From NCBI GenBank assembly GCA_000004695.1, contig CM000153.2, positions 704,001 through 768,000 of the forward strand: DNA of 64,000 nt, written 5' to 3'. The notes beneath the pieces were generated by a model. The model was not told the origin of the DNA. It did no database searches and was given only the letters and a program-made list of their open reading frames with translations. Shown here one piece after another: positions 26,279-56,235 of this stretch. Source of the DNA: Dictyostelium discoideum (lineage: Eukaryota). Numbering within the stretch: position 1 is the first letter of the stretch; every line of letters begins with the position of its first letter. The position numbers were made by a program, and so were the translations under genes.

Positions 26279-26639
26279 TTGAATTAATTGCAATTTATCT
26301 TGATATTTTTTACTTTGAAATCATCAAAGGTTGGTTTTTAAATTCTAAAAATTAAAAATCTGGAAAATATCAGTTTTTTTTTTTTTTTTTTTTTAAGTAT
26401 ATTTTATTCCTATTCTTAGAAAAAAAAAAAAAAAAAAAATTAAAAAAAAAAAAACTGTTAAAAATTTTAGTATAAAAATGAAAAGTTTTTTTAAAATCAT
26501 TACTTATAATCACAACATTGAATAAGTTTATATTTTTTACAAATAAAATGGGTAAAAATATTAAATTAAGAATATAATGACAAAAAAAAAAAAAAAAAAA
26601 AAAAAAAATAATAATAATAAATAAATAAAGATACTGATT

Positions 26640-28052
26640 TCCTAAAAAGATACAAGTATTATTGAGTGAAATGAAACAATGGGTAAGTTTCATTACCTCT
26701 TTTAATATTTTTAAACTTAATAGATATATTAATAATAATAATAATAATTATAATACTAACAATAATAATATTATTAACATATTATAATTAGTAAAATTAA
26801 TGAAGGAAACAGAAGGTACTATGAATTGGGTATTTGTTTAAGATATAGAGTCGTTGATAATGTCCATACATTTCAAATAAGATCGTCTAAGGTAAAATAT
26901 CTTGATGAAAGATATGTTTTCGTGTATTTATTAGATGGTCATTTTGTAGGTCATGGATTTTTTATGAATATCAAAGATTTGGAGATATAAGATTAAATCA
27001 AGGTGTCTATGTATGGATTATTACTAATTTTATAATTTAATTTTATAATTTAATTTTAATAAACCAATAAACTAACATATATTATTAAACATCTTTTTTC
27101 ATAAATTTAGGTTGTCAAAGGTTTCATAGTTGATTTCTTATAAAAAGAGGTGATTCAAAATCATTTATTCTTTGCACTTGTTGTTTGAAATGGTTACATA
27201 TGGATAGCTTTAACGATACAAAAACTGGTCATCCTTCCCATTATCAATTTTGCTTTGATTGTATTACAGAAATAAAAATAAACACCAAATTTCTGGCTGG
27301 ATTTTATAACATTAATTTAGAGTACTGTTGCAAATTGCTCATAATTTATAAATACAGATGTGCCACAGTCAATGCAATTTTTTCATTTAAAAGGTTAAAA
27401 AGCTTCGAGCTCAGATTCGATAGAATTTCAAGCCTTGAACATATATGGTTGGGAATATTCAACTATTATCACATGAATTAAACAACCCTCAAGATATAAA
27501 GAAGATGAGGAAATTATTAGACAGAGGGCAAATAGTATTATGTACGACAAAAGATTCCCTCGAAATACCACAACGAATATTCAACTTTTCTATCTTTAAA
27601 AAATCAATATTTCACAAAGATGGAGATGTTTTATAACAAATAAATTACTTTTTAAGATAATAATGGATCAAGTAAAAAGAGAAAGAGAGAAGATTATGAA
27701 AAGAAAAAAATAAGTTATGGAATATCAAAAAATAGATTAATGGGTTGGGTTGGTTATTTCAAAAATAACACAGTTTTTACATGTAGTTTTATTAAAGTCA
27801 GTGATTATACTGCAAAAAGATTCGAAAAGAATAGTGAATTGTCATATGATGAAAATAATGATGTCCACAAGCTACTATCAACATATTGGTTATCAAGATA
27901 TTTCAGTTTCAAAGTACAAATACATTTGTGACCCAAAAGATAAAGTTATTTTAAATAGTGTTTCTTGGGAAGAGTATAAAGTAAAAAACAACATCAATAG
28001 AATTAATGACTACATCAATCCTCATTATCCTATTCATAAACTTTTAGAATAG
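26640..28052 (+). pseudogene. Degenerate coding remnant: several frameshifted ORF fragments on the + strand, possibly a decayed DNA-transposon (BED-zinc-finger-like) or other pseudogene.
   Basis: GC content is higher than the surroundings. Fragments are ...KINEGNRRYYELGICLRYRVVDNVHTFQIRSSKVKYLDERYVFVYLLDGHFVGHGFF (26800-26990); LCTCCLKWLHMDSFNDTKTGHPSHYQFCFDCITEIK (C..C..H..H / C..C pattern, 27150-27300); 27445-27636; and 27750-28052. They lie in three different frames and no clean splice pattern joins them. Confidence 0.3.
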
Positions 28053-28890
28053 ATATTTATTTTAAATTATAGTTTTTGTTTTCTTTACAAAAAAATAATA
28101 AAAAATAAAATAAAATAAAAAAAGTGTTATAAATTTTTTATAGCTTGGAATTATCTTAATTTTTGCTTTACCTAAACTTTATTTTTTCTGATATCTTTAT
28201 CTTTACTTTTTTTGACTGCTATTTTTTTTTTTTAAAAAAAAAAAAAAAACATAAAATAAACAAATTATATTACTATTATTATAATATATTATTATTATTA
28301 TTATATAATGCAAATAATTTATTTTGCACGCAAATTGATGCATTCTTTTATATAAACTTATTTCAGTACACTCTAAATTGCTTTTTGATTTTTCTTTATT
28401 TTACTATTTTTGATTTATTATTAATACTTTAAAAATTTAAATTAATTACCGGATTTGTAGTTTTAATTTCTTCTTAATTCTCATTTAGATTAAATCCTGT
28501 ATTTCGATTTTTTTTCTAATACAATTATTATTTAAATTATTTATTAAATTGGTTGAATTATTTTCATCCGGTAATTATTAAATTTTCTTGTTGCAGTTTT
28601 TACCTAACCTGTGTTTGATTATATGCACGATATCCAATACATAGATTGTTTGTACCAAATCTACCAATTGTTTAATTAATATAGTGATTTCATAATATTA
28701 TAAATTTTTTTTTTTTTTTATTATCAAAAACTATTTATTAAAAAAAAATAACTAGTTATTTGATTGTTTAAAAATTAAATAAAAATTTACTTTGAAGTTT
28801 GCTCCAAATATTTTTTTTTTTTTTTAATAAATAAACTATTATTATTTTTAATTAAAATCTATAGATTACTTTTACTTTTTATTGAAATAC

Positions 28891-29103
28891 CACTATTACT
28901 ATTATTACTATACTATTTACTATTACTATTTATTACTATTACTATTACTATTAATTATTACTATTACTATTACTATTACTATTACTATTACTATTACTAT
29001 TACTATTACTATTACTATTACTATTACTATTACTGTTACTATTACTATTACTATTACTGTTACTATTACTATTACTATTACTATTACTATTACTATTACT
29101 ATT
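28891..29103. repeat. (TATTAC)n hexanucleotide microsatellite of about 35 units, with occasional TGTTAC variants.
   Basis: Seen directly; it generates the artefactual ORFs 28882-29145(+) and 28926-29111(-). Confidence 0.9.
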
Positions 29104-30815
29104 CTTTCCAATTGGTGTTATCATCTGAAGTTAAATTTCTATTGAATCCATAACCTATCTCTAATTTAGTAACTGATTCAAGTTTTAACATTTAAAATAG
29201 AGTGTGTAAAGTTAAATAATCTGTTGTTGATGTTGTTGCTGTTGTTCCTGTTTTTGTAGTAGTTGTTGCTATTGTGGTGTTGTTGCTGTTGTGGTGGTGT
29301 TGTTGTGGTGCTTTTGTCGCTTTTGTTGTGAAACATGATTAATAATTCATCTAAAGTTAGAGAGAATGGTGAATCTTATGATGTGTGTTTTTAAAACATA
29401 TAAAAAAATCAAAAAAACAAATGATTACATTCATTTTTTTTATTTTTTATATCATTTTGTTTGTGTATTTTTGAGTGCTCTCCTATCTACACTAAATTAA
29501 TATTAAAATAAAAAGAGACCTCGTAGTCAATTTGACTGTTAAAATACGATTTTTCAGAGAATGGATCAACTTTATTTTCGTCATTTATGTCGGTGACTAT
29601 GGTTAGGAGGCAAAGAACTCACCTGGATCCCTCTGATAGTCGCCAACCTAGGAGACTCAAGTTGCGATATTCATTTCATCATAAATATAACAATTAAAAA
29701 TATAATTTCAACTTTTGTTCGTTCGGTTTTATTATATTTTTTTTTTTATGGGACATTTGCAAAAAATAGTTATTTTTTTTTTAAAAATTTTTAGTTTAAA
29801 ATTAAAATTTATTTTCCAAAAATTTCATTTTATTAATCAGAATTTAAATCTCATTTTCCAACAACACAATAATTTTTTCAAAGTGTGGAAAAAACATAAT
29901 TCCAACACACCCAGATTTTTTTTAAAAAAATAATAAAAAAAAAAAAAAATTAAAAAAAAAATAATAATAAAAAAGATAAACATTAACTTTTTTGTAATTT
30001 CATTTTGTGAAGAGATGAATCATGACCCTACAACTGATAAACAGTATCATCATGCAATGTTACAAATATTTCAAATGAAAAAAAAATAAAACAAAATTCA
30101 CTTTTTTTTTTTTCAATAATTTTCATTTTTTTTTTTTTTTCGTTTTTTTGATATTTCAAGATATTTTCAAAATATGATTTTGATTTTTTTTTTTGATTTT
30201 TTTTTTTTTTTTTTTTTAAATAATAAAATAAATAACCATTATTATTTATTTATTTTAATTTTTAATTAATTTTAGATTCGTTGCTTTTAATAGGTCTGAT
30301 ATAAAATCATAATAAATCTTATGATCTTTTTTTAAATTTTTTTCATTTTTTATTTCATTTTTTTTTTTATCTCAAAAAAATATCTCATAATAAAATTAAT
30401 TCAAATTCTAAAAATAATATATTTGTTTCCGTACTTTTAATTTTTTTTTTTTTTTTAAAAAAAAAGTTTTAGTTTGTTTCAAAAAAGTTAAGTTATTTTT
30501 TAGAAAGTTTATACTTGAAAAAATATATCTTATCTATAATTTTATTAGATTCCCTTTTATTAATTTATTTATTTATTTATTTTTTTTATTTTTTTTTTTT
30601 GCCCCCATCATGATTGTTTAATTTGACAATAATTTTTTTTTAATAATGAACCTATTAAATGTGAGTGGGTTTTTATTTTAAACTGATTTTGTAAAACATT
30701 AAAATAAAATTAAAAAAACTAAAAAAAAAAAAAAAAAAAAAACTATAAAAAGAAATTTTTTTTTTTTTTAAAACCAGAATTCTCTCTCTTCTTACTAATT
30801 AATTAAATTTCAAAA

Positions 30816-30836
30816 ATGTTATTCAGTAAGTAATTT

Positions 30837-30935
<99 letters not shown>

Positions 30936-30976
30936 TAATATTTAAAATAGTAAAGGGTATTAATAAAAGTATAATA

Positions 30977-31016
<40 letters not shown>

Positions 31017-31193
31017 AAAATTATTTTAGAATCATTACAATCAATCACAAGTGTAAACTCAATTCAAAAGAATCAAATTTCTTCAATTTCATTAGGAAGC
31101 TCACAATCAAATAATAATGCAGCACTCTTAGATGCAGCAGCATTTGTTGCAATTCCAGGTTTATTAACTGCTGCTGCTGTTGCTCATATTTAA
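30816..31193 (+). CDS. Small (57 aa) Ser-rich protein, possibly hssA/2C/7E-like. Two exons: 30816-30825 and 31030-31193.
   Basis: ATGTTATTCA|gtaagt donor. An intron of (AAT)n plus poly-A ends at acceptor ttattttag|. Exon 2 reads KSLQSITSVNSIQKNQISSISLGSSQSNNNAALLDAAAFVAIPGLLTAAAVAHI*. Phase 1 is consistent. Confidence 0.35.
30841..30930. repeat. (AAT)30 microsatellite, intronic or intergenic.
   Basis: Seen directly. Confidence 0.9.
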
Positions 31194-31334
31194 ATTTTTA
31201 AAGATTTAATTATGAATTGTTTATTATAATTCATAAATTAATTATTAAAAACACACACAAACAAAATTATATGAATATTAAATTGTAAAATTAATAAATA
31301 AATAATTATATTCATTCATTTTATAAAAAAAAGT

Positions 31335-31370
<36 letters not shown>

Positions 31371-31551
31371 ATTAAATCAATTTTTTATTTTTTATTTAAA
31401 TGATTGTTATAAAAGTTGTTATTGTTATTATTGCTTTATGATAATTTTAGTGCTATTGTTATAGCTCTTATATGAATGTCAATATCTATTGATCACGATT
31501 GTAAGTTTTTAATAGAAACTACCCACAAAAAAATACTACCACGATAAATTA

Positions 31552-31705
31552 ATGATGTTGATGTTGATGTTGATGTTGATGTTGATGTTGATGTTGATGT
31601 TGATGTTGATGTTGGTGTTGATGATGTTGATGTTAATGTTGTTGTTGATGTTGATGTTGATGTTGATGTTGATGTTGATGTTGATGTTGGTGTTGATGTT
31701 GATGG
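31552..31705. repeat. (ATGTTG)n hexanucleotide array of about 25 units.
   Basis: Seen directly; it sits immediately 5' of the palindromic element. Confidence 0.9.
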
Positions 31706-32040
31706 TTCATTTGCTCATACTAGGCCACTGCCCACCAGTTGGTGACAGACTGCCGTTTGCCAATAATAGGTAAGTGTCAGCTTAATGTTCGCAGACTGGG
31801 GTTTGCCCATGCTATACAAATGACCGCTAACTGGTGGCAGATGGTCATTTACTCATACTAGGCCATTGCCCGCTAGCAGCCAGAAGACGGCCAGTGGTCT
31901 AGTGTGAGTAAACTGAGGTCTGCCAGCAATTAACGACCACTTATATAGTATAAGCAAACGGAAGTCTGCTACCAGCTATAGGGCACTGACCTATTATTGG
32001 CAAACAGTAGTCTGTCGCCAACTGGTGGGCAGGGGCTTTG
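31706..32040. mobile_element. ~330-bp GC-rich quasi-palindromic element (MITE-like, thug-like), a non-coding hairpin repeat.
   Basis: The terminal arm ggccactgcccaccagttggtgacagactgccgtttgccaataatagg (31725-31772) is the near-perfect reverse complement of cctattattggcaaacagtagtctgtcgccaactggtgggcagggg (31989-32034). The interior also self-complements (gtttgcccatgctatacaaatgaccgctaactggtggcagatggtcatttactcatactaggccattgcc vs the revcomp of ...ggccagtggtctagtgtgagtaaactgaggtctgccagcaattaacgaccacttatatagtataagcaaac). There is no ORF. About 50% GC within 22% GC surroundings. Confidence 0.45.
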
Positions 32041-32711
32041 TATAAACAAATGAACCATCTGTTGAAATCTATTTAAAATTGAAATTTAAAATATGAAAAA
32101 AAAAAAAAAAAAAAAAATTAATGAAAATGGAATGAGATTATTCATTTTTGTTACCAGTTTATGATTATTTTTAAATGAATTTCAAAAAAAAAATAAACAA
32201 AATTTAATTTTAATTTATACAAAAAAGAACACAATAAAAAAAAATAAAAAAAATTAAAATTTTTAACTTAATCTTTAGAAAAACAATTTTTTTAATTTTT
32301 TTTTTTGTTATAATTTTTATTATTTATTTTATTTTATTTTTAACCATCAAAAAATATTACATAAAAATATTGTAACTATTTTTAGGAAAAATGGTGGTTT
32401 TTTTTTTTTTTTTTTATTGTGTGCTTTTTTGTTGCTGTGTTTACAAATTCATTTTAAATGAATAAAAAATTAAATCATAATATTTTGGTGGTTCCAATAA
32501 TAGATTTTTCTAATCAAAAAATAAAAAGAAAAAAAAAAAAATGAACTTTGAGATTGTTTTTTTCTTTTTTATTTTTTATTTTTTTTTCTTTTTTTTTAAT
32601 TTTTAATATTTTTTTTTTTAATATTATTAATAAATAAGGTAATTACAAAATGATCTATTTTTCAACTGATATCATTGGGGTTGAACGTAATTAAATTTAT
32701 AATAATATTTT

Positions 32712-32751
<40 letters not shown>

Positions 32752-33090
32752 TTTAATTTTAGAACCATTGTTTCATCTTAAAATTAAAAAAAATAAAATA
32801 AAATAAAATAATAATAATAATATTAATAATATTAAAAACAATCATAAAAATAATAATAAAAATAATCATAATTGGTGATAATGTTTTTTTTTTGGAAATA
32901 TTAAAAAAAAAAAAATAATAAATAAATAAATAAATTAATTTTCAAACTTCACATCTTTATATTTTTATTTTTTCCTCTAAATATTAATTATATATATATA
33001 TTTTTCCTGAAAAAATTTTACCTAAAAAATAGGATGTAAAACTTTGAAAGTAAATTATATTTTTTATTAATTAATTTCAAAATAAAAAGA

Positions 33091-33124
33091 ATGAGAACCC
33101 CAAATTATATAAATAATAATTATT

Positions 33125-33219
<95 letters not shown>

Positions 33220-33534
33220 CAAACAAATTTAAATGAAGAAAACAATGATCAATACGATATGATGAGAGAAAATTTGAAAATTAGAAATATTACAGTTATA
33301 TTAAAATTATTAATAACAATGAAAGCTGGTATCACAAGAAATTCATCTGATACAACTGGTATGACAATGACTCCATCTGATCAAGTTCCAACACCTGGAG
33401 TATCAAAGGATGATTTTAATACTTTAATAATACGCCATTTTCGTTTATACAATAATTATCCATCTCCATCACCAACTACTTCATTTAACTCAACAAATCC
33501 CCAAAACACACACCAAACGCGAAAAAGTAATTAG
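33091..33534 (+). CDS. Hypothetical low-complexity protein (147 aa, poly-Asn tract).
   Basis: An ORF with a long (AAT)n-encoded N tract followed by non-repetitive sequence (DQYDMMRENLKIRNITVILKLLITMKAGITRNSSDTTGMTMTPSDQVPTPGVSKDDF...). No domain recognised. Confidence 0.3.
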
Positions 33535-33625
33535 AAATAAGAATTAGTTGTTTTAGTCATTTTATTTGCTCTTTAAAAAAAAAAAAAATTAATAAAATTT
33601 ATAAAAATAAAAAAAAAAGAAAAGA

Positions 33626-33670
<45 letters not shown>

Positions 33671-33987
33671 AACCAAATTAATTGTTTTAGTCATATTATT
33701 CATATTTATAAATTTAGTTTATTATTAAGAAGATTTTCTTCATTTTATTTTTAATAGTTATTTTCATCATTTTAATCACTTTAGTTTTTATTATATATTT
33801 TCATCATTTTAATAATATTATTTTAATTACAAATTTTCATCATATTAATCATTTTAATTTTTTTTATTTTTTTCATAAAGAGACTTAACAAAAAAAGAAT
33901 CATCATTTTATTAAACATTACACCACTTTTTATTTTTAATACTAAATAAAGATAATAAAAAATTAATTAAAAAGTGAATTCTTTTTT

Positions 33988-34019
<32 letters not shown>

Positions 34020-34037
34020 TTATTTTTACTATTAAAA

Positions 34038-38939
<4,902 letters not shown>

Positions 38940-38965
38940 TCTATTTCGGCCTAAACAGTGTTTTT

Positions 38966-39008
<43 letters not shown>

Positions 39009-39133
39009 CAATAATTTATAAAAAAAAGCCCGGAATCCCATTTTATTGAGTTGCGAGTGGCGAAAATTAAATTTGATTAGTTTTTATTTTATTTTTATTT
39101 TTATTTTATTTTTTTATTTTTTGATAAAAGAAA

Positions 39134-39277
39134 TTAAATTAATAATAAATCTTCAACTAACTTTCGTATGTAGGATTTATTAGAACCAAGATAGCTATTA
39201 ATTTTTTCACCATTTTTATATGTAACAAAACATGGAACACCTGAAACTAAATATTGAATTAAAAATTGAATTATTAA

Positions 39278-39324
<47 letters not shown>

Positions 39325-39490
39325 ATATTATATATACCATTTTTACAAACTTCTATATTGGGTAATTTGTCTAGGTCAACCTTTATAAACATGATTTGTT
39401 GTTGAGACTCTGCATAGATTTTTAAAACTTTTTCACATTCTTTACATTTATCACCTAAAAATTAAATAATTGATTTGGTTAATTTATTTA

Positions 39491-39521
<31 letters not shown>

Positions 39522-40418
39522 GAAAAAAAAAATACATACACCACAATGTTGATAAAAATACCATTACTAAATTTCTTTTTGAAAATTCATTTTCAAATTC
39601 ATCAATACTTTTTGGTTCTGTATAATTCTTTGAGTTTTTATTATTTAAAAAATCCATTGTAAATTGTGATAACCCAGGTGGAGGTTCTAATTGTGGTCCT
39701 GATAGTTTAACAATATCAGGTATGGTTTGTGGAATAAACATTGGTTTTGAAAAAATTTGATTTATTTTTGTTGTTGGTATTGGTAATTGTTCTTGTTGCT
39801 CTTGTTGTTGTTCTTGTTGAAGTTTTTGTAATTTTAGATTTGCTAAAATTAAATCATTTTCTAATTTTGTAATTTTTAAATCTTTTTCTTTATTTGACTC
39901 AATTAAATTAATTAACATTGATTGTAATAAAACATGTGGACATGTTATTTCATGAATTGATACAATTGATCTAATTGAAGAGAATTTACAATTCACATTT
40001 TCACCTTTACAATTTATTATGATTGATTCACATTGATTTGTAATATGATTATTAATTTCTGTATTTTTAAATAACTTTCCACAACCTAATGAACATAGTT
40101 GAGTTTTACAATCATTTTTTAAATGATAATTAATGAAATTATTACACCTTTTAATTGGTATAATATCATCACATTCATCACAAACAACTAAAATCTCATT
40201 AAATTTACCAATATTAAAATCTTGTGAAATTTCTATTTTATTTACAATTTTTGTGGTTGTTGTTGTTGTTTTTATTTCACACGTTGGACATATATCTCTA
40301 CCATTTAAACATTCCCTACAAAATATTTTACCACATTGTTTCTCCTGTACAGGGTCATTTAAATAATTAGAACAAATTTGACATTTTAATTCATTACCAA
40401 TTTTATTAATTTTAATAA

Positions 40419-40464
<46 letters not shown>

Positions 40465-40500
40465 ATTACTATTCATATTTTTATTATTATTTTTTAACAA
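39134..40500 (-). CDS. RING/TRAF-type zinc-finger protein with coiled coil and a C-terminal thioredoxin-fold domain (CxxC = CDKC). Three exons: 40500-39540, 39454-39338, 39246-39134.
   Basis: Exon 1 has CQICSNYLNDPVQEKQCGKIFCRECLNGRDICPTC (RING-like), then TRAF-type fingers (CKTQLCSLGCGKLF...H...C; CKGENVNCKF...H..CPH), then a coiled coil (LENDLILANLKLQKLQQEQQQEQQ). Donor W|gtatgt (phase 1) joins exon 2, giving NLVMVFLSTLW-CDKCKECEKVLKIYAESQQQIMFIKVDLDKLPNIEVCKNG. Exon 3 reads VSGVPCFVTYKNGEKINSYLGSNKSYIRKLVEDLLLI*. This aligns to thioredoxin VVVDFWAEWCGPCK...KLNIDQNP...YGIRGIPTLLLFKNGE... Confidence 0.6.
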
Positions 40501-42463: not shown

Positions 42464-44248
42464 ATGGATTTTTTAAATAAAAAAATTCAAAAAATATTAT
42501 TTATTTGTATTTTATCATTTTTAATTGTAAATTTAACTAAATCAGAAATTAGTGAAGTTAAAGATGTTAGTAAATTTTTATCAGTAGGTGGAGGAGGTAC
42601 AGGAGGATGTCAACATCCAATTTATTGTAATGGTACATTATTAAAAACAATACAATTGACACAAGTATTTAATGATTCAAAGACATTTGTCGATATGCCA
42701 ATGAGAACATCAATAGAGAATGTTAATGAATTGTTCAACCAACTTTTATTGAACACCAGTAAAAATGGTGGACCAAATAAAGAGGAGTTGGCAGCATTCC
42801 TCAGTGAAAATTTCTACCCAGCAGGGTACGAAGTTGAGCCGGTTACACCAGTAGATTGGGTGCCAAATCCAAGTTTTTTAGATGAAATCACTGATCCGAA
42901 TTTAGTGGATTTCGCAAGAAGCATCCATGGCAAATGGCTGGAATTAACCAGAGTATTCAACACCAGTGGATTGTGTGACGGTTGCTATAGTTCAATACCT
43001 GTGAATAATCCATTCGTAATTGCAGGTTCAAGATTCCGTGAGTTCTACTATTGGGATAGTTATTGGATCATTCAAGGTTTATTAGTATCTGATATGACTA
43101 CAACTGCCAAAGGCATGTTAAGAAATTTCGGTGATATGATAACTGAATTTGGGTTCATTCCAAATGGTGGTAGAATCTATTACTTAAATAGAAGTCAACC
43201 ACCACTTTTCACCCAAATGGTGAATAAATATTTTGAAGCAACCAATGGTAGTGATATTGAATTCCTTCAAGAGATATTACCAATTTTAGACCAAGAATAC
43301 CAATGGTGGATGACCCATCGTACAACAGAGTTGACCAATGGGGAAACTGGCGAAAGTGTGATTTTGAATCTTTATAATGTAAGCAACAATTCACCACGTC
43401 CAGAATCCTATTATGAGGATTTCACCGACGCTCAGTCATTTTCAAGTGTTGAAGAAAAGGATTATTTCTATAGTTCAATTGCCAGTGGTGCAGAGAGTGG
43501 TTGGGATTTCTCAAGTCGTTGGATGAGTCCATCTGACAATACCAATTTAACAACCATCCAAACCGTTGATGTAGTACCTGTGGATTTAAATTCCATACTT
43601 TATTTAAATGAAAAGATTCTTTCATCATTCCATAGAACACTTGGCAACAATTCAATGGCAGTCTATTACCAAGCTCAATCCGAGTCAAGAGTGGATGCAA
43701 TGCAACAAGTGTTTTTCAATGAGGATACTTACCAATGGAATGATTATAACTTGAAAACTAGCACAAACAATGAGGCTTGGTATACTTCAAATATTTTACC
43801 ATTGTTTGCCGACATTCAATCCTCAATCGATATGGATAACCAAGAGATTGATCTCATCTTTAAGAGTTTGGCAAATGTTTTAATAGCCTATCCAGGTGGT
43901 GTCCCTACTTCACTTATCTCTGCCCAAAGTTTACAATGGGATGGTTTAAACGTTTGGCCACCACTTCAATATTGGATCATTGAATCAATTATGACTCCAA
44001 ATACTACATTTTCAAATATGATTGGTAAAAATTTAATTGATCGTTGGATCACTACAAACTTTTGTGGTTGGAATTCAACTTTGGAATCTGAAGGTGGTAT
44101 GATGTTTGAAAAATATAATGCAAACTATATTGGTGTACCTGGTGGTGGTGGTGAATATGTTGTTCAAAATGGTTTTGGTTGGACAAATGGTGTTGATTTA
44201 TATTTATTAAAAAAATATGGTAAATCAATAACTTTAAATAGTTGTTAA
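42464..44248 (+). CDS. treh: Trehalase (GH37 alpha,alpha-trehalase), secreted/lysosomal.
   Basis: Signal peptide MDFLNKKIQKILFICILSFLIVNLTKSE. Trehalase signatures are IAGSRFREFYYWDSYW (PGGRFxExYxWDxY) and SLQWDGLNVWPPLQ (QWDxPxGWAPxQ). It is a full-length 594-aa ORF with no intron needed. Confidence 0.9.
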   Translation: MDFLNKKIQKILFICILSFLIVNLTKSEISEVKDVSKFLSVGGGGTGGCQHPIYCNGTLLKTIQLTQVFNDSKTFVDMPMRTSIENVNELFNQLLLNTSKNGGPNKEELAAFLSENFYPAGYEVEPVTPVDWVPNPSFLDEITDPNLVDFARSIHGKWLELTRVFNTSGLCDGCYSSIPVNNPFVIAGSRFREFYYWDSYWIIQGLLVSDMTTTAKGMLRNFGDMITEFGFIPNGGRIYYLNRSQPPLFTQMVNKYFEATNGSDIEFLQEILPILDQEYQWWMTHRTTELTNGETGESVILNLYNVSNNSPRPESYYEDFTDAQSFSSVEEKDYFYSSIASGAESGWDFSSRWMSPSDNTNLTTIQTVDVVPVDLNSILYLNEKILSSFHRTLGNNSMAVYYQAQSESRVDAMQQVFFNEDTYQWNDYNLKTSTNNEAWYTSNILPLFADIQSSIDMDNQEIDLIFKSLANVLIAYPGGVPTSLISAQSLQWDGLNVWPPLQYWIIESIMTPNTTFSNMIGKNLIDRWITTNFCGWNSTLESEGGMMFEKYNANYIGVPGGGGEYVVQNGFGWTNGVDLYLLKKYGKSITLNSC

Positions 44249-45415: not shown

Positions 45416-47376
45416 ATGGGATCAGTTGATACATCAGTCCCATCATTCGATAGAGCATGGAGTATAAAATATGAAGATTTAGATTTTATTTCTGAAATTG
45501 GTTCAGGTGGTTTTGGAAAAGTAAGTTAGTTTATGATTTATTTATTTTTTTTTTTTTATTATTAGTTTACTTATAATCGGGGATTTTTTTTTTTTTTTTT
45601 TTATAAAAAAAAGGTTTTCAAAGGTGAATATTTAGGTGCACCAGTTGCAATTAAGAAAATTCATATTTTACCTGATGATCCAAATCGTGTTGATTTAGAG
45701 AAATTTTTAAATCGTGAAATTGAAACTATTAAATTATTCACTCATCCAAATGTAATTCAATTTGTTGGTATCTCTGAAAATAATGGTATTCTTTTCATTG
45801 TTACTGAATTAATCGAAGGTAAATATATAAATATATAAAAATAAATAAAAAATATATATAATAAAACTAATAATTATTTTTATTTTATAAATTATTACAC
45901 AGGTGGTGATTTACAATATTATTTAAAGAATCAATCAATTGATTTACCATGGTTTTTAAGAGCAAACATCGCTCTTGATGTCTCTTTAGCAATGTCATAT
46001 CTTCATTCAAAATCAATTGTTCATAGAGATTTAAAATCTACAAATTTATTAGTTGATAAAAATTGGAAGATTAAAGTTTGTGATTTTGGGTAAGATACAT
46101 AATTATAATTATAATAGTTGTTATTTATTTTTCATATTATTAATTTTTTTTTTTTTTTTTTTTGTTTTTTTTATAGTTTTGCAAGAATCGTTGAAGAAGA
46201 TAATAATAAGTCAATGACAATTTGTGGTACTGATAATTGGATGTCACCAGAGATGATAACTGGATTAGATTATGATGAGAGATCAGATATCTTTTCATTT
46301 GGTATTGTTTTATTAGAGATTATAAGTAGAGTTAAACCAGCACCTTATATGAGAGATGCATCATTTGGATTAGCAGAAGATATCGTTAGAAATCAATTGA
46401 TACCAACTGATTGTCCAGAGAGTTTAATTGATTTAACATTTAATTGTTGTTCAGTTGATCCAAATAATAGACCTTCATTCAAAGAGATTTCCCAAACTTT
46501 AAAACAAATTAAAACTACTTTAGATTCAAATATAGTTTATCCAGAAATTCGTGATTTTGAACAACAACAAAAAATTTCAACAACAAATGGTAATAATAAA
46601 CAAAATGGAGGCGCTCCAAAAATTAATAATTTACCACTTCAATATAGTAATAATAATAATAATATTTATGATGATGATGATGATGACGATGATGACGATG
46701 ATGATAATGATTCATTCCCAAGACCATATTCAGATAATAGTAATAGTAATGTAACTTTAGAATCAAATTCAAATTATAATTCATCAACTATAAATGGACA
46801 AGAGCAACAAGAACAACAAGAACAACAACAACAACAACAAGTAAAAGAAGAAAGGGATGAAGGTGAAATTGAACAAGATGATGATAATATTGAGGTATAT
46901 GATAGTGATTATCAAAAGAAATTAGAAGAACATCAAAAAGAATTATTAGAAAGACAAAATCAAAATCAAGAAGGATCAACTGATGAGAATGAAGTTTATG
47001 AACAAGAAGAAGAAGAAGAAGAAGAGGATGAGGAAGAACAAGTTATTTCAACACCAGCTAAAAAGAGAATTTCATTTGGGCAAGATACTTTCCACACATA
47101 TGAAGCATATAGAACTGATGATGAAGATGATGATGATGATGAAGAGGATGAAGAAGAGGGTGATGAATATGACCATGGTTATGATGATTTCGATGAAGAT
47201 GATGAAGATGATGAAGAATATGATGAAGATGAAGATGATGAAGATGAAAGACAAATTCAATATTATCAACAACAATTACAATATCAACAACAATTACAAA
47301 AGCAACAAGAACAAGAATATCAAAGACAACAACAATTACAATTACAAAGAGAAGAAGAAGAATATCAAAGACAATT

Positions 47377-47427
<51 letters not shown>

Positions 47428-48964
47428 TCAACAACAATATGATGATGATGATGATGACGATGATGAAGAAGAAGAAGAGTATGATGATGTAATTAGACAT
47501 GATACTGATTCTGAAGAAGAATCAAAAGATAAAACTCCACTTCCATGGGATCAACACTTTGAAAAACAAAAAGAATCTGAAAATAAAGTTGAACAAGAGG
47601 AAACTAATGTAGTTGTTGCTAATAGTCAAGAAACTGAGCAACAACAACAACAACAACAACAACCAAAAGAAGAAGAAGAAGAAGAACCAACTAAAGTTGA
47701 AGATGTTAAAGTTGAAACTGAAGAACAAACCAAAGAAGAGCATGATGTTAAGGTTGATGAAGAATCAACTAAAGTTGATGAACCAGTTGATGAACCAACT
47801 AAAGTTGAAGAATCAGTTGAACAAGTTAAAGCTGAAGAACCAAATAAAGTTGAAGAATTGGTCGAAGAAGTTAAAGTTGAAGAAGAACCAACTAACGTTG
47901 AAGAAGTTAAAGCTGAAGAACCAGTAGAAGAAGTTAAAGTTGAAGAACCAGTTGAAGAAGTTAAAGCTGAAGAACCAGTTGAAGAAGTTAAAGCTGAAGA
48001 ACCAGTTGAAGAAGTTAAAACTGAAGAACCAGTTGAAGAAGTTAAAGTTGAAGAACCAGTTGAGGAAGTTAAAGTTGAAGAACCAGTTGAAGAAGTTGAA
48101 GCTGAAGAATCAGTCCAAGAACCAGTTGAAGAAGTTAAAGTTGATGAACCAACTAAAGTTGAAGAACCAACTAAAGTTGAAGAACCAATCGAAGAGGTTA
48201 AAGTTGAAGAACCAACTAAAGTTGAAGAATCAATTGAAGAAGTCAAAGTCGAAGAACCAACCAAAGTTGAAGAACCAGTTGAAGAAATTAAACCTGAAGA
48301 ACCAACCAAAGTTGAAGAATCAGTTGAAGATGTTAAAGTTGAAGATGTTAAAGTTGAAGAAGTTAAAGCTGAAGAACCAACTAAAGCTGAAGAATCAGTT
48401 GAAGATGTTAAAGTTGAAGAACCAATTAAGGTTGAAGAACCAGTTAAAGTTGAAGAACCAGTTAAAGTTGAAGAACCAGTTAAGGTTGAAGAACCAATTA
48501 AAGTTGAAGAACCAATTAAAGTTGAAGAACCAATTAAAGTTGAAGAACCAATTAAAGTTGAAGAACCAATTAAGGTTGAAGAACCAGTTAAGGTTGAAGT
48601 TGCCTCACCAGTTGTTCAAGAACAACCACCACAACAAGAAGAAAAACCAGAAGTCGTTTCAACTTCAACGATTACAATTGCATCATCACCACAACAATCA
48701 TCTAATTCACCACCATCAACTCCAGTTAAACAACCACAACAACAAGAAATCGAAGTAAATTCAACTCCAATTAAACAACAACAACAACAACAACAAACAC
48801 CAACACAACAAACACAAACACCAACTAAACAACACACTGAAATTAATGTCCAACCAACTCCAACTAAAACTCCACCATTACCACCTCAAACAAATGAAAA
48901 AATACCACTTATTTCACCAAATAATAAATCAAATAGAGGTTGTTGTTCCTGTTTCATCCAATAA
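45416..48964 (+). CDS. Protein kinase (TKL-like Ser/Thr kinase) with a ~700-aa acidic low-complexity tail carrying tandem EEPVEEVKV / EEPIKV repeats and a C-terminal CCSCFIQ lipidation motif. Four exons: 45416-45520, 45614-45818, 45903-46089, 46177-48964.
   Basis: Kinase subdomains read across the introns: GSGGFGK|VFKG...VAIKK...; ...TELIE|GGDLQYY...[12 protein letters not shown]...KVCDFG|FARIV...GTDNWMSPE...[12 protein letters not shown]. Donors are gtaagt, gtaaat and gtaaga; acceptors are aaag| and cacag| (ttatag| for the last). Phases are consistent. The repeat region 47900-48600 has perfect 27-nt and 18-nt tandem units. Confidence 0.8.
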
Positions 48965-49546: not shown

Positions 49547-51174
49547 ATGAATTTTAATTTAAATTTAGAATATCTAAATAGTGATCCAAATTCTATCATT
49601 GAATATTTAACACAAATATGGAAAGAGGATGAATCATTAGGATATTATAAAGAATTTCTTGACGTTTGTTTGAAAATTGTTGCAGGTACCGATCAGCCAG
49701 AAACATTTTTCAAAGAATTAACTGATAAAAAACTTTTAAATTTCGGAGCATGTGAAACTAAATGGAGTTTCGGTGACTCTGCTTATAAATGTAGAACTTG
49801 TCAACTTGACCCAACAAGTGCATTATGTATTGCATGTTTTAAAGAAGGTGATCATGAAGGTCATGATTGTAAGTTAAATTTATTTATTATTTATTTTTTT
49901 TTTCCCCATATAAAATATTTTATACTAATTTTTTTTAAATTTTTTTTTTTTTTTTTTAAAAAAAAAGATGCATTACAAAGTGTTGGAGGTGGATTTTGTG
50001 ATTGTGGTGATCCAGCAGCATTTAGACCAAATGGATTTTGTATTAAACATAAGGAACAAAAGATAGATATTAACAAGTATCCAGAAAGATTTATATTGGC
50101 ATTAAGTTTTGTAATACAGTTTATGTTGAAAAGGATATATGTGTTTTATGATAAGAATAATAGGGTATTGTTTGAAATGTTAATTGAATGGTTATTGAAA
50201 TTAGCACAACGTGGTGACATTATAAAGGTAGTGGTAATTAAATACATTAGTAACACAGACATTGGTAACACGAATTTATTACCACCATCACCATTTGCAG
50301 TACCATTGATTCAATTGTTCTATTCACCAGATTTACACGAATCAGTATCACGTTCAATGAAAGAGACAATCGCCAACTTTTGTGTGTTTTTACGTGGTTC
50401 AGTGGAATTTATCGAGTCGTTCATATCATTGATGTTACCAATTTACAAGAAATGTATCATCGAATGTAAGAAACATATCCTTTTATCATCATTTAGTATA
50501 TTTTCATCGACTGCAGTGGGTCCATTACTATTGTCAACCAACGCCGCTGAGATCGTGATGGATACTATCACAGAGTATTTTAGTAAACATTTTTATATTA
50601 GAGATGAATTCATTTCACCATCATCATCAGATTCAAAGTCAAAGAAAAAGAGATCATTACGTTTCAAAGATCCTTACCTTTATCCACAATTTAAACAATT
50701 GACAAAATTACATGAAACACCTTTAGCCACCCAAGTATTACGTACCGATATCTCTTTTATACTTGGTAATCAACCCGTTGCAAAGAGTGTCGTTGAGTCT
50801 AAACATCTTCTTTCCCTTTGGATCAATATGATTGCAATCGCTCAAGGTATGAATCCAAATGTTAAATATAAGATCACCTCCCCTGATGATTGGTCACCTG
50901 CTTTCAATGTTGATTTCTCCTTTAGTAATACCATTTTCTCCATAGTAAATTCAATATCACAAGATAAATTATCATTGGATCAAATTTTATTATTCTCAAC
51001 TCAATATCTTGGTAAATGGATTTTAGGTTGGTTAGAATATAGAAATAATTATCAAGTTGAAAAATTAAAAAGATTAGAAGAAAAAGAAAAAGAAGAAAAA
51101 GAAAAAGAAGAAAAAGAAAAAGAAATTGATTCAAAAGAATTAAAAACAACAACTACTACTACTACTAATACTAC

Positions 51175-51233
<59 letters not shown>

Positions 51234-53404
51234 CAATACCACATTATTTAACAAATATTAAACAATTATTATCATTACATTTAAAACGTGAAGGATTTTC
51301 ATTCCATTTACCATTACATAGATTAGTATCAGCTATTTTATTTAAATGTTTAAATAATGTTGAATTAGCAAAACAGTATAAAGATGATGGTGGTTTGAAA
51401 TCATTGTTTACTCAAATCATTGGTTCAGATTCATTGATTAGCATTTCAGATTATGCAAGAGGTACAACTTATCATCCATTCAAGATCATTGCCTCTTTAG
51501 GTGAAATTAAATCTGGTATGTGGAGATCACATGGTAGAGAAGAGGATATGACATTACAAACTGTCGTTTATCAAAGTTTACATTATCAAAAGTATTTCGA
51601 TTTAGATATTTTCTTAATTCAAATCGGTGCTGCAATTATGGGTTCAAATCAATTCATTCAACATGCTATCAATATCTATAATCTTGAAGATTGGTTTGAA
51701 ATTGAACCTTTTAATGGTTCATTAAATAAATCAACTGAGGGCACTCCTACTACCACCTCATCACAACCACCTTCAACTCCTTCAAAACAAACTTCATTAC
51801 GTAATAGTGCTGGTACTGTACCAACCACTCCTTCTCAATCTTCTTCAACTATAGTTCCAACTTTAGATACAATTGGTGAAACTACCACTACTACTACCAC
51901 CACAGCAACAACTACCACCACCACTGATGGTATAATTACAGAACCAAAAAAAGAAACTAAAGAAGAGAAAAAAATTAGAAAAGAAAAACAAAAGATTCAA
52001 GAAGATTTACAAAAGAGAAAAGGTTTAGCAGAGGATTTCTTACAAAATGTTATTATGTTTTCAACAAATAAATTAATGTGTGGTATGACAGAGGATCAAG
52101 TAATTAGAAAGGAGTTAATTCATAGATTATGTTTAGGTGATAATACTCATAGTCAATTGACAAGAGCAATCAAGAAGAAATTGGTTAATCATGAAAACTT
52201 TGAAACTATATTAAAGGAAATTTCAGTCTACCATCAACCACAAAAGACCGAACAAGGTAAATATCAATTACGTGAGCAATGTTGGTCAGAGTTTGATCCA
52301 TACTTTTCACATTACAACACTCAAGATTTACAAACTGCCGAAGAGAGATACTCTGAATTTCAATCCAAAACCAAGTCAAATATCGCTCGTGGTACCTATA
52401 TAAATTATCAAACTTCACCTTGTTTCGAAGAGATTGATCAATTACTTTGCTCAAAGACTTTACATCAAATCGTTTTCACTATCTTACAAAACCAATTGGT
52501 GGATGGTGCAAAATCAACTGATACCATATTCACCCATTGTTTACACGCTTTGGAGTTATGTATCAATCAAACTTTGGCCAATCCAGAGTTGAAGGCTGAA
52601 GCTATCAGCTCTGCAATCGTGGTTCAAACACCTTCAAAACAAACACCATTGGTTAAACCATCTTCTGCAACTCCACCAACTTCAATTCCAAAGAATTATT
52701 CAGAGATTGAATTACCATCTAAAAAGAATATCTTTTTGAATGCTTTTGTCGATGTTCCAGTTTCAGAGCAAAAGAGATTCTCTTTGATCATTTTATTGGT
52801 AAAACTTACAACCTCTCAACAAATCAATGCCGATCATAAACAACAAATTCAAAATATCATTAACATCTTGATGGAGAATAATGTCAATTGTAAACAAACC
52901 ATTGAAAATTATTGGGCTGCAATTAAAGCAAAGAAACAACCACAATCTGCACGTAAAGAGGATCCAGAGGAAGAAAAGAAACGTTTAGCTCGTGCTAGAC
53001 AAGCAGCGATTTTAGCTCAAATGAAAACTCAACAATCTGCTTTCAAATTTGAAGATGGTGAAGATGATGAAGATTACGAAGATGATTATGAAGATGCTAG
53101 CACAAAAGGTTCATCAGCTAGCGCAGCACATAAAGATAAAAAACAAAAACAAAAAGAATCAAATGCATTGGTTGTTGATGGTCATGAATCCATTACAACT
53201 TGTGCACTTTGTCGTGAACCAGGTTCATTGGATCGTCCAATGGGTAGAGTTGCTTTCATTCAACCATCTTCAATCATTATGTTATCAAAATTAACACCTG
53301 AAGAAAGAAAGAAACGTATGACTGAAGCAATAATGAAAGAACTTTATCAAGGTGTAAAAGGTAGAGAAACTATAATTTCAAATAATGATAATATAATTAA
53401 TTTA

Positions 53405-53441
<37 letters not shown>

Positions 53442-56191
53442 TTAACAACAATAATAATAATAATAATAATAATAACAATAATAATGTAAATAGTATTAAT
53501 AACAATATTGGAGGTATTCCAATTGTAAATAATGGTAATGATGGTGGTGTTAATGGTTTAACAGATTATATTCATCCAGATATGGATGAAATGGATGGTG
53601 ATGATATGGGTGATGTTGATATGGGTGGTATGGCAGTTGAGGATGATGGAGAGGATGATAGTGAGGATGAAGTAAATAAAGCTATCTCTTTCCTTAATCG
53701 TGTTTCACATTCAAATGATTTCATGGGTGGATTTGGTGATTTCGAAGATGGTATGGGTATGGATATTGAAGGTGGTGATGATGATGATGATGACGATGAT
53801 GACGCCGAAGATGATGATATGATGATGGGTGAATTGGGTGGAGTTCGTCACCATCACCACCATCATCATGGTGAGGAAGATGAAGATGGTGAAGAAGATG
53901 AAGATGGTGAAGAAGATGAAGGATCAGATTCAGATTCAGATTTGGATTTAGAAGATTTAAATGGTTCCGACGATTCAGATGATGAATTTGATTTTGGTGA
54001 TGAAGAAGGATCTGATGAATATATTTTAGAAGACGGTATGCCACGTTTACGTAGATTGGCCGGTACAAGTACTCAACAAGGAACTACTAGTACTAATAAC
54101 ACCACTGCAACATCAACCAATGATATAGCTCAAACTTTATTGAGAGCTCTAGAAAGAATACCAACAGGTACAGGAAATGTTAATAGTCGTAATATCATTA
54201 GCCAATTAACAACTCAATTATCACAAGGTAACGCAAGAGTACACATTCAAGCAAGAGATAACAATGGTAGAGCATTTTCAGAGATTAATTTTGATCAACT
54301 TCTTAGCCAATTAAATAATCAAACAAATGTTCCAATCTCTGTTCATGATAATGGTCGTAATAGAGCATCTGTAACTCTTCAATTAAATTCAACTCCTCCA
54401 ACTACAACTACCACCACAGCAACTTCACCAGCAACAACAACAACTACAACAACTACTACAGCAACAGCACCAAAACCAAATGATAATGGTGGTAGTGATG
54501 ATGAGGATTCAGATGATATGGGTGATATTGATGGGGATGATGAAGATGACTTATTTGGAGATGACGATGATTTCTTCTTTGATGATGATGAAGCAAACGA
54601 TGATGTTTTCCTTAAATTTGATGCAGCAACTGAACCAGTCACAGGTAAACCATGGTCAAATAAATTTAGTAAACAAGAAATCTTTAGAAACATTGAGGAA
54701 TCAGTAAACCTTAATTTATCATTCTGTGGTCATCAAATTCATGAAAGTTGTTTCTCTGAATACTCTTGGTCATTGTTAAAGAATAATGAAGGTGTTGAAT
54801 ATGTCGATCCAGAAAAGAATGAATTCCTTTGTGTATTATGCCGTAGAATTGGTAATGCGATCGTACCAGTTGTACCAGATTCAGGATTTTGTTCACACGA
54901 ACATACCGCATCACCACAACCAATCATCACACCAGCAATGGCAAGAAATAATAAGAATAAAGATGTTCAATGTTATTCCGAATTTTATCAAGCATTGGGT
55001 AATAGATTAATGGGTAAAGATGAAGAGCATAAAAAAGCATTGGATGCTCCAAACCCACAACCATTAAGAAATATTAGACAAGCAATCGATCAATTCTCAT
55101 CCAGAGTCTATGGTGTTAGATATGATTTGAATTTCTATAAATCAAAATCTGATGCAACCGTCATACCATTCCTTTGTTCATCTTTAGCTTCAACCATTGC
55201 AAGCACTGAACTTTCAATTCGTGTTCATGATCCAGAACAACAACAACAACAGCAACAACAACAACAACAATCAAGTCTTTATCCATTATTCTCAATGAGT
55301 GATTCAAATCGTGTTGACCTTCGTTCACTCTTTAGATATATGATTGTTCATTCACATATGTATCCATCATTGGCATATCAAGGTCAATTACTTTGGAAAT
55401 CAATATCTGGTTCACAACATACTCAATTATTACCAACTGAAGAGGAGTTGGAAGAAATTGAAAGAAAAGAAAATGAAGAAAAAGAAAAACTTTCAAAAGC
55501 AAAACTTGATCAAAAAGAAAAAGAGAAAGAAAGAGAGAAAGAAAAAGAAAAGAATGAGAGAGAAAGAACTCAAAAACTTTATCCAGAGGTTTATGATCAA
55601 GGTGTTTATGGTGAGGCATTCCCACCATTACTTTCATTAGATCTTTTCAATACTTTTATTCAAGTGTTTTTAAGATACTCTGATACTAATCTTTCATTGA
55701 ATGTTGAGAAATTCTATATGGTAGCAAGAATGTTTTATGATGCATCAATTACTCAATCGATTTTACAACATTTCAAAACCACCGATACTACTTTCACCAC
55801 CGATGATACCTATGTATCAACCATTAACAATTTAATCACAACAACCTATGAAACAGTAACACCAATCTTATCAATTCCACCAGTTCATTTGACTGCAATT
55901 AAAACTAATTCTCTAATCTTTTTAAGAAGATTATCAATCTTTTTGTTTAGTTGTTTAAAGATTGATCCAATCTCTTCAAATCAAACTACATTGGATGGTG
56001 AAATCGATTATTTAGTTGATTATTTAAATTTACCATCATTTGATCAACATTGTTTATCAGTTTTAAATGCTATCACTTCTCATACTGAAAATATTGTACC
56101 ATTGGTTTCAACTTGGACTGAACAAATATTATTTATTTCTGCTATTACTTCAAGTGTTGAAGATTCAAAAAATAATGTTGAAGATTTATCA

Positions 56192-56235
<44 letters not shown>

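Follow-up and report, generated by a model that had tools for sequence, protein, structure and literature searches.

Gene Structure

The window analyzed here is the whole of a 64,000-nucleotide (nt) stretch of Dictyostelium discoideum DNA (contig CM000153.2, forward-strand positions 704,001 to 768,000), and its minus strand carries, upstream of a large neighboring gene, a gene whose product joins a TRAF-like RING/zinc-finger module to a C-terminal thioredoxin domain. The window is AT-rich Dictyostelium DNA throughout. Gene and product were analyzed by explicit splicing of the minus strand, and all coordinates are window positions (Table 1). The locus is a stand-alone, three-exon, protein-coding D. 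discoideum gene; its spliced product is 388 amino acids (aa) long from the first ATG, with both junctions in frame. Exon 1 comprises a poly-Asn N-terminus, the RING-type finger, three TRAF-type fingers, the presumed coiled coil, a linker and the initial β-α-β part of the thioredoxin fold, and it ends with ...TTG TGG T at 39540, such that intron 1 interrupts the codon of the first active-site cysteine (TGG T/GT GAT AAA TGT, encoding W-C-D-K-C). The product has neither signal peptide nor transmembrane segment and is predicted to be cytosolic. Both an AATAAA-rich 3' region and a promoter-like region of the neighboring gene, with TATAAA and oligo-A, lie downstream of the stop codon.

An initial annotation of this DNA, made from its letters alone, had spliced two short downstream exons onto a zinc-finger open reading frame (ORF). 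The sequence features that it described, its exon and intron coordinates and its gtatgt and gtatat donors are all present where it placed them, and the junctions that it called phase-consistent are both phase 1 and in frame. Two particulars require correction: the product, given as 393 aa, comprises 388 aa, and the start given at 40500 is only a TTG that opens the mechanical ORF, the first ATG being that at 40476.

Table 1. Positions of the gene, its protein domains and its downstream neighbor in the window
Feature	Position	Strand	Details
Exon 1	39540..40476	(-)	937 nt; residues 1-312 and first base of Cys313; first ATG at 40476
Intron 1	39455..39539	(-)	85 nt; GTATGT...TTTTTAG; phase 1
Exon 2	39338..39454	(-)	117 nt; encodes ...C(DKC)KECEKVLKIYAESQQQIMFIKVDLDKLPNIEVCKN
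Intron 2	39247..39337	(-)	91 nt; GTATAT...ATATTTAG; phase 1; contains (TTTA)n microsatellite
Exon 3	39134..39246	(-)	113 nt including TAA stop at 39136-39134; encodes VSGVPCFVTYKNGEKINSYLGSNKSYIRKLVEDLLLI, then stop
Second in-frame acceptor	39241..39246	(-)	TTTCAG, 6 nt downstream; use would give 386 aa lacking Val-Ser
RING-type finger	40279..40383	(-)	residues 32-66: C32, C35, [E45], C48, C53, C56, C63, C66
Three C2HC TRAF-type zinc fingers	39940..40182	(-)	residues 99-179
Long single helix	39790..39939	(-)	residues 180-229; AlphaFold secondary structure
Linker	39637..39789	(-)	residues 230-280; AlphaFold confidence and five-species alignment
Thioredoxin domain	39137..39636, both introns within	(-)	residues ~281-388; Pfam PF00085, PDB sequence matches, AlphaFold, Foldseek
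Extra annotated "intron"	38941..39161	(-)	221 nt (211 nt in GCA_054883475.1); GTTAGT...AAATAG
Gene for 1633-aa protein	34038-38939	(-)	signal peptide, long Asn tract, many N-x-S/T sites, C-terminal multi-transmembrane region

Intron 2 ends in tandem acceptors, ATATTTAG followed directly by TTTCAG, the latter being kept in all five genomes compared below. Splicing at the upstream acceptor, which is the one used by the D. citrinum gene model, yields CKNVSGVPCF, gapless against thioredoxins such as the best single-domain match P0032 (VKNVLGVPTF), whereas the downstream acceptor leaves a 2-residue gap versus thioredoxins precisely at the exon 2/3 junction. The 386-aa product would be at most a minor form. 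The Val-Ser pair that separates the two forms lies beside the cis-Pro loop, and its addition or removal by alternative splicing is possible.

Conservation of the Spliced Gene

Five genomes were compared, namely those of D. discoideum, D. citrinum, D. dimigraforme and two D. cf. discoideum. The orthologue of D. citrinum (P0001) was found as a homologue, and the loci of D. dimigraforme (L004) and the two D. cf. discoideum (L005 and L006) were reached from the orthologues of the trehalase gene DDB_G0283473, the divergent neighbor of the gene described here and an intronless ORF at 42464-44248 (+) identical to AX4 DDB_G0283473/TREA_DICDI. The orthologue search that the initial annotation had proposed returned the fused protein in all four of these genomes, at 79-93% identity.

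Across the five genomes exon 2 measures exactly 117 nt each time, intron 1 ranges from 53 to 89 nt and intron 2 from 73 to 98 nt with GT...AG kept, and the stop codon, be it TAA, TAG or TGA, stands at the same position (5/5). In comparison with D. citrinum, the exons are 86-92% identical (91.5% for exon 2 and 92% for exon 3, both indel-free), the introns 75-78% (intron 1, 75%) with 4 and 17 gapped positions, and the 3' flank 56%. The differences within exons 2 and 3 number 4, 1 and 14 at codon positions 1, 2 and 3, respectively, and the ratio of nonsynonymous to synonymous substitution rates (dN/dS; Nei-Gojobori, all ten pairs) is 0.07-0.18 over the last 108 codons and 0.05-0.17 over exons 2 and 3 alone. 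Immediately past the first donor, D. citrinum has a 4-nt indel, so that there is no conserved read-through frame. From this pattern we strongly infer that the coding sequence is spliced and that purifying selection acts on it across the whole D. discoideum species complex. The public models for D. citrinum, of 384 and 388 aa and with Pfam RING and Thioredoxin matches, use the same junctions, and all public gene models that we reconstructed share introns 1 and 2 and disagree at their 3' ends only.

The Thioredoxin Domain

The spliced product contains a complete thioredoxin fold, as had been proposed; in type the fold is that of the classical cytosolic thioredoxins, with W-C-D-K-C as an atypical site. 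An AlphaFold model built on a composite alignment shows a predicted local distance difference test (pLDDT) score of 92-98 over the C-terminal ~108 residues (~280-388), with secondary structure in the order β-α-β-α-β-β-α, and a Foldseek search against the PDB superposes ~100 residues on P. falciparum, human and yeast thioredoxins with target-normalized template modeling (TM) scores of 0.88-0.90 and a root-mean-square deviation of 1.5-1.7 Å. The HMMER check suggested with the initial annotation places the full protein above the gathering threshold of the Pfam Thioredoxin model (PF00085; 36.0 versus 23.5 bits, expect value (E) 7e-9) with a match over residues 292-379 that spans nearly the whole model, and the isolated domain scores 40.6 bits (E 2.8e-10); the threshold is passed by the spliced product only. 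In a phmmer search of PDB sequences the best match is the thioredoxin of P. falciparum (E 2e-11), followed by dozens of classical thioredoxins.

The fold begins ~25-30 residues before the end of exon 1, and with its first helix and strand (residues ~291-309) encoded there, the downstream exons are not an independent thioredoxin gene and belong to the RING/zinc-finger ORF. A separate thioredoxin gene, which the initial annotation had allowed for, is structurally impossible and is excluded: the Pfam match opens inside exon 1, and exon 2 opens mid-codon.

Within the domain, W312-C313-D314-K315-C316 aligns in register with the WCGPC of thioredoxins at the N-terminus of helix 2, and G354-V355-P356-C357-F358 brings Pro356 to the cis-Pro alignment position, both in agreement with the initial assignments. 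Trp312, Cys313, Cys316, Pro356 and the conserved Gly are kept in register with classical thioredoxins and are invariant in the five species, as are the segments WCDKCKEC and GVPCF as a whole. Further cysteines at positions 319, 349 and 357 are likewise conserved, with Cys319 extending the motif to C-x2-C-x2-C and Cys357 standing in place of the Thr after the cis-Pro. By homology, C313, C316 and C319, all on helix 2, and C357 would lie near the classical active site.

The N-Terminal RING/Zinc-Finger Module

For the N-terminal half, we used a profile from 28 homologues obtained in the exhaustive HMMER search (29 aligned sequences including the query). The RING, modeled by AlphaFold at a pLDDT of ~90, has seven cysteines that are invariant or nearly so in the 29 homologues. 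Its third ligand position, three residues before the third Cys, is occupied by His in 18/29, while the canonical His column holds Gln or Asn. The three fingers (C99/C102/H118/C123, C128/C132/H144/C149 and C156/C163/H175/C179) follow the pattern C-x(2-6)-C-x(11-15)-H-x(3-4)-C, with little or no variation at any of the 12 ligands in the same alignment. The profile matches the structure of TRAF6 RING-ZnF1-3 (5vo0) with E 1.4e-18, over an alignment spanning the RING and all three fingers, as well as LNX2 (E 1.6e-19) and TRAF5, and Pfam detects zf-TRAF in 18, zf-TRAF_2 in 16 and Sina_ZnF in 19 of the 29 members. The RING/TRAF-finger label of the initial annotation is therefore borne out at the level of the profile, but not by the single sequence, for which the Pfam RING models score 17-26 bits, all just below their thresholds, zf-TRAF gives no match and Sina_ZnF is marginal. 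On this profile-level evidence, the RING/TRAF-finger/coiled-coil label appears right for the module. No MATH domain was matched by Pfam at E up to 1, and because the defining TRAF-C domain is missing the protein does not strictly count as a TRAF. Its E3 ubiquitin ligase activity is putative.

The long helix that follows the fingers is presumably a coiled coil. In the linker, residues 230-269 are disordered (pLDDT <50), and a Q/P/T-rich stretch varies from ~10 to 60 residues among the orthologues. The C-terminal block of the linker (39637-39702, residues ~259-280), SGPQLEPPPGLSQFTMDFLNNKNSKNYTEPKS, is almost invariant in the five species (GPQLEPPPGLSQFTMDFLNNKN.KNY.EPKS) and may serve for docking or extend the thioredoxin domain at its N-terminus.

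Distribution and Origin of the Fusion

The rarity of the fusion was assessed in an exhaustive hmmsearch of 1.84 billion representatives (50% clusters of ~15 billion proteins), which gave 1680 matches at E up to 1e-3, with a full-length match to the D. citrinum cluster only. Rescoring of the retrieved proteins with separate profiles identified the N-terminal module in 41, the thioredoxin in 116 and both in the two D. citrinum orthologues only. No other protein with both halves is present among the best 150 matches from these representatives, with the proviso that an orthologue of >50% identity would share a cluster; the initial annotation had called the architecture non-standard, and among these matches both halves indeed occur together in orthologues alone. 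A word-index protein search with a 152-aa C-terminal query missed P0001, which is 93% identical over that stretch, and with a profile of five orthologues it missed the paralogue P0011 and the D. dimigraforme model; its negatives were not used. In the five genomes compared and the representatives searched, the fusion has so far been seen only in the D. discoideum species complex. In the databases the fusion protein is unnamed ("hypothetical protein"), and full-text searches of the literature found no description of a RING-thioredoxin fusion or of WCDKC. It is a TRAF-like RING protein with thioredoxin instead of MATH, lineage-restricted and not previously described.

The best non-orthologous match is the D. 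discoideum paralogue P0011 (KAM9958919.1, 284 aa; E 4e-38), which is encoded by a single exon at another locus (L003:6001-6855 in D. discoideum GCA_054859355.1) and near which tblastn detected no hidden thioredoxin exons. It may be that a RING-zinc-finger-coiled-coil gene was duplicated and that one copy acquired or retained the thioredoxin C-terminus, with the thioredoxin-less paralogue surviving elsewhere. P0011 is a useful natural "minus-thioredoxin" control.

Proposed Function and Alternative Readings

Taken as a whole, the findings are best explained, and with reasonable probability, by a conserved stand-alone gene in which a TRAF-like module is joined to a thioredoxin and has a redox-coupled function. 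The mechanism that we propose for it is tentative and, in the form stated here, somewhat likelier to need revision than to hold. The helix would oligomerize the protein, as in TRAFs, the RING/zinc-finger end would recruit a ubiquitin-conjugating enzyme (E2) or serve as an adaptor, and the thioredoxin domain, located where TRAFs carry their receptor-binding domain, would be the client-facing or sensing end, with the Cys313/Cys316 pair exchanging thiol-disulfide bonds with oxidized partners. The redox state of the client, or of the protein itself, would then gate ubiquitination or complex assembly.

Several observations weigh against this reading. The dipeptide of the CxxC motif is Asp-Lys and not the canonical Gly-Pro, the buried acid (Asp26 in E. 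coli) is replaced by Phe307, and the helix-kink Pro five residues past the second Cys (Pro40) is missing. With orthologues this close, invariant cysteines say little about catalysis. The only other C-D-K-C in a thioredoxin-fold domain that we found in the literature, KNCDKC in the Trx2 domain of yeast Eps1p, is seen in the crystal structure of that domain as a buried, non-catalytic disulfide, with a trans proline and no buried acid (PMC4249923). As to the N-terminal half, single-sequence RING scores stay below threshold as described above, ligand position 3 is Glu45 in this protein, in all its orthologues and in the paralogue, and AlphaFold gives no confident inter-domain arrangement (predicted TM score (pTM) 0.37). 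Finally, splicing is inferred from comparative genomics and gene models, and in three assemblies the models merge the locus with its neighbor.

Considering that the buried acid is missing just as in Eps1p Trx2, where the presence of the motifs does not amount to a working site, we rate redox activity of the domain as only somewhat more probable than its absence. With the D-K dipeptide, Phe307 for Asp and no helix-kink Pro, the sequence would suggest a site that is slower, and probably less reducing, than that of a CGPC thioredoxin, and hence one suited to sensing or trapping rather than to bulk reduction.

The strongest competitor, unlikely yet to be taken seriously, holds that the thioredoxin domain is redox-inert and is a structural or protein-binding docking module in place of MATH, its CxxC forming a buried structural disulfide or being unused, with the thioredoxin domain of PICOT/Grx3 and Eps1p Trx2 as precedents. 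The missing buried acid, the lack of any Pro in or after the CxxC motif and the D-K dipeptide shared with the buried KNCDKC of Eps1p all speak for it, and the extra conserved cysteines C319, C349 and C357 could form structural disulfides. Against this, the Trp before CxxC is kept, there are no insertions, the alignment to classical thioredoxins is gapless and the TM score is 0.9; structural disulfides are unusual in the cytosol, the predicted location of the protein; and several bona fide thioredoxins among the matches likewise do without the buried Asp or the helix Pro.

Improbable, in our view, is a model in which the thioredoxin works on its own polypeptide in cis and maintains the ~19 Cys/His zinc ligands of the RING and TRAF fingers in reduced form, or resets them after oxidative zinc release, which would make the protein a self-repairing or self-switching E3 and not one that traps clients. 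The zinc-rich N-terminus is tethered to the thioredoxin by a flexible linker of 40-50 residues, and zinc-finger-plus-thioredoxin polypeptides (E. coli Trx2) and redox-sensitive RINGs (SAG/RBX2) provide precedents. However, the low pTM goes with no predicted inter-domain contact, P0011 has the same zinc module and does without thioredoxin, and nothing sets action in cis apart from action on a client. Slimmer still is the chance that the cysteine cluster binds a metal or Fe-S center, or runs an internal disulfide relay, and could thereby turn the protein into a self-contained sensor of redox state or metal, with direct control over a TRAF-like ubiquitin ligase.

The usual coupling between ubiquitin ligases and thiol-redox enzymes is indirect and in trans. 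If the redox-coupled reading holds, a TRAF-type RING and a thioredoxin in a single chain would provide a simple, genetically tractable model in which redox state is read as ubiquitination or adaptor assembly, and D. discoideum is amenable to knockouts. The fusion also shows that an enzymatic fold can take the place of the receptor-binding MATH domain in TRAF-like proteins, in an exchange within the D. discoideum species complex that is apparently recent. It is one odd fusion among many in a genome rich in such fusions, and the proposed link between redox and ubiquitin is testable.

Annotation of the Locus and Neighboring Genes

The annotation of D. discoideum GCA_054883475.1 (99.78% identity with the window) shows a single gene of 2013 aa at this locus (L002:1598-8026), and merged models of 1960 aa (L005:1-5178) and 2056 aa (L006:1-5306) are found for the two D. 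cf. discoideum. The 2013-aa model is reproduced by one splice combination only, in which introns 1 and 2 are kept and an extra "intron" is added that removes the stop together with the 8 codons before it, as well as the AATAAA-rich 3' region and the promoter of the next gene, joining K380 to Met1 of the 1633-aa protein. For D. dimigraforme, a model of 417 aa (L004:3225-4966) uses a weak GTTATC donor in exon 3 and a 337-nt intron to reach a poly-Asn exon; it truncates the thioredoxin fold but keeps the RING-thioredoxin gene and the downstream gene apart. We judge that two different kinds of 3'-end artifact are present across the four assemblies. The one ending that all five genomes share is the natural stop.

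It is very improbable that the true gene encodes the merged 2013-aa product, that is, the RING, fingers, coiled coil and thioredoxin minus the last 8 residues, fused to a 1633-aa membrane protein. Merged models do occur in three assemblies, the GTTAGT...AAATAG splice is in frame, and no exact match is on record for D. discoideum to the stand-alone forms (388, 386 or 330 aa) or to the 1633-aa protein on its own, which would fit a merged reference model but is no proof of it. A full-text search for six neighboring DDB_G identifiers found nothing. The acceptor, however, is 1 nt upstream of the start codon of the downstream protein, whose signal peptide (MKARILLFLSIF...) would then come to lie in mid-protein, an implausible topology, and the skipped segment holds the positionally conserved stop and several AATAAA motifs. 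The 8 skipped codons (LVEDLLLI) finish the last thioredoxin helix and are conserved (LVEDL). The donor reads AAATTAGT in D. citrinum, with GT absent, and the degraded GTTGAT in D. dimigraforme, where the predictor, using a different 3' tail, separates both genes; D. citrinum lacks the large gene at this place altogether, an Arf gene following 1.1 kb further on. We judge the merged models to be annotation artifacts. A merged model hides the RING-thioredoxin protein in a 2013-aa chimera, such that proteome surveys would miss or misread it, and the false merge probably hides both proteins from proteome searches.

That there is no splicing, the ORF ending in a poly-Phe tail (...LSTLWCMYFFFQFFFFFFFFYFK) and the downstream thioredoxin-like pieces being a separate gene or a dead remnant, we discount almost entirely: a mechanical ORF of 338 aa exists, but its read-through tail, whose unspliced end the initial annotation had considered, comes from a poly-T intron and is shifted out of frame by the indel in D. 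citrinum, the thioredoxin fold starts in exon 1 (Pfam match from residue 292), the downstream pieces lack a start codon and begin mid-codon within CxxC, the dN/dS of exons 2 and 3 is as low as given above, and introns 1 and 2 are used by every public gene model.

The 1633-aa protein matches no Pfam family at E up to 0.01. Its gene adjoins the RING-thioredoxin gene in D. dimigraforme, and for that reason D. citrinum has probably lost or relocated it. Synteny with D. citrinum jumps from window position 39095 to ~26268, the Arf gene. The ~12.8 kb that lie between the RING-thioredoxin and Arf genes in the window (~26300-39090) correspond to ~1.1 kb in D. citrinum (L001:9369-10450); in D. discoideum this stretch holds the 1633-aa gene and ~8 kb without long ORFs. 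A listing of ORFs in window positions 25-34 kb showed nothing notable. Two upstream neighbors in the window are ORFs unrelated to the finding: 46118-48964 (+) has a protein-kinase C-lobe, after which come very long acidic tracts and tandem VEEP/KVEEP repeats, and 49547-56773 (+) encodes 2408 aa and is, by the look of its sequence alone, a candidate UBR-box-type E3.

Comparison with Known Systems

With TRAF6 and the TRAF family, the 388-aa protein has in common the N-terminal RING, the C2HC TRAF-type fingers and a long helix, with the profile homology to TRAF6 given above. It differs in that the TRAF family has MATH/TRAF-C where this protein has thioredoxin, and in that its RING belongs to a subfamily with a His ligand three residues before the third Cys, here Glu, unlike TRAFs. 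In D. discoideum, TRAF-like E3s act in membrane-damage and infection responses, and the five "stereotypical" TRAF-like proteins TrafA-E do not include the 388-aa protein; the TrafE paper covers only TRAF-like proteins with the full domain set (PMC10181826). Closer to hand, the paralogue P0011 has the same RING, three fingers and coiled coil, with 45% identity over the N-terminal module and the same Glu at ligand 3, but ends in a Q-rich tail with no thioredoxin.

The classical cytosolic thioredoxins (P. falciparum Trx1 (1syr/2mmn), human TRX1 and yeast Trx1/2) match over the whole fold at 24-30% identity and share with the Dictyostelium domain W-C-x-x-C, the cis-Pro position and the conserved Gly in a gapless register. 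The Dictyostelium domain departs from them in having CDKC for CGPC, Phe for Asp26, no Pro40, Cys for Thr and an extra Cys, and in its fusion to a zinc-finger module of 280 residues. With Eps1p Trx2 it shares C-D-K-C, and in both the buried acidic residue next to the resolving Cys is missing; Eps1p Trx2, however, lacks the Trp, carries two 13-residue insertions and resides in the lumen of the endoplasmic reticulum, whereas the Dictyostelium domain, predicted to be cytosolic, keeps the Trp and is free of insertions.

Thioredoxins attached to other machinery are known from E. coli thioredoxin 2 (TrxC), in which a thioredoxin is fused to a zinc-binding CxxC module, and from TXNL1, a proteasome-bound thioredoxin that forms part of the ubiquitin-proteasome system. 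Neither has a RING, a TRAF finger or a coiled coil, nor any homology beyond the thioredoxin fold, and the parallel is one of analogy. In animals, the thioredoxin-ASK1-TRAF2/6 signalosome links the redox state of thioredoxin to TRAF-type RING adaptors. There, separate proteins act in trans, whereas in Dictyostelium thioredoxin and TRAF-like module form one polypeptide; the self-contained sensor considered above would, if true, be the social amoebae's own, independently evolved counterpart of the animal thioredoxin-ASK1-TRAF logic, on one polypeptide.

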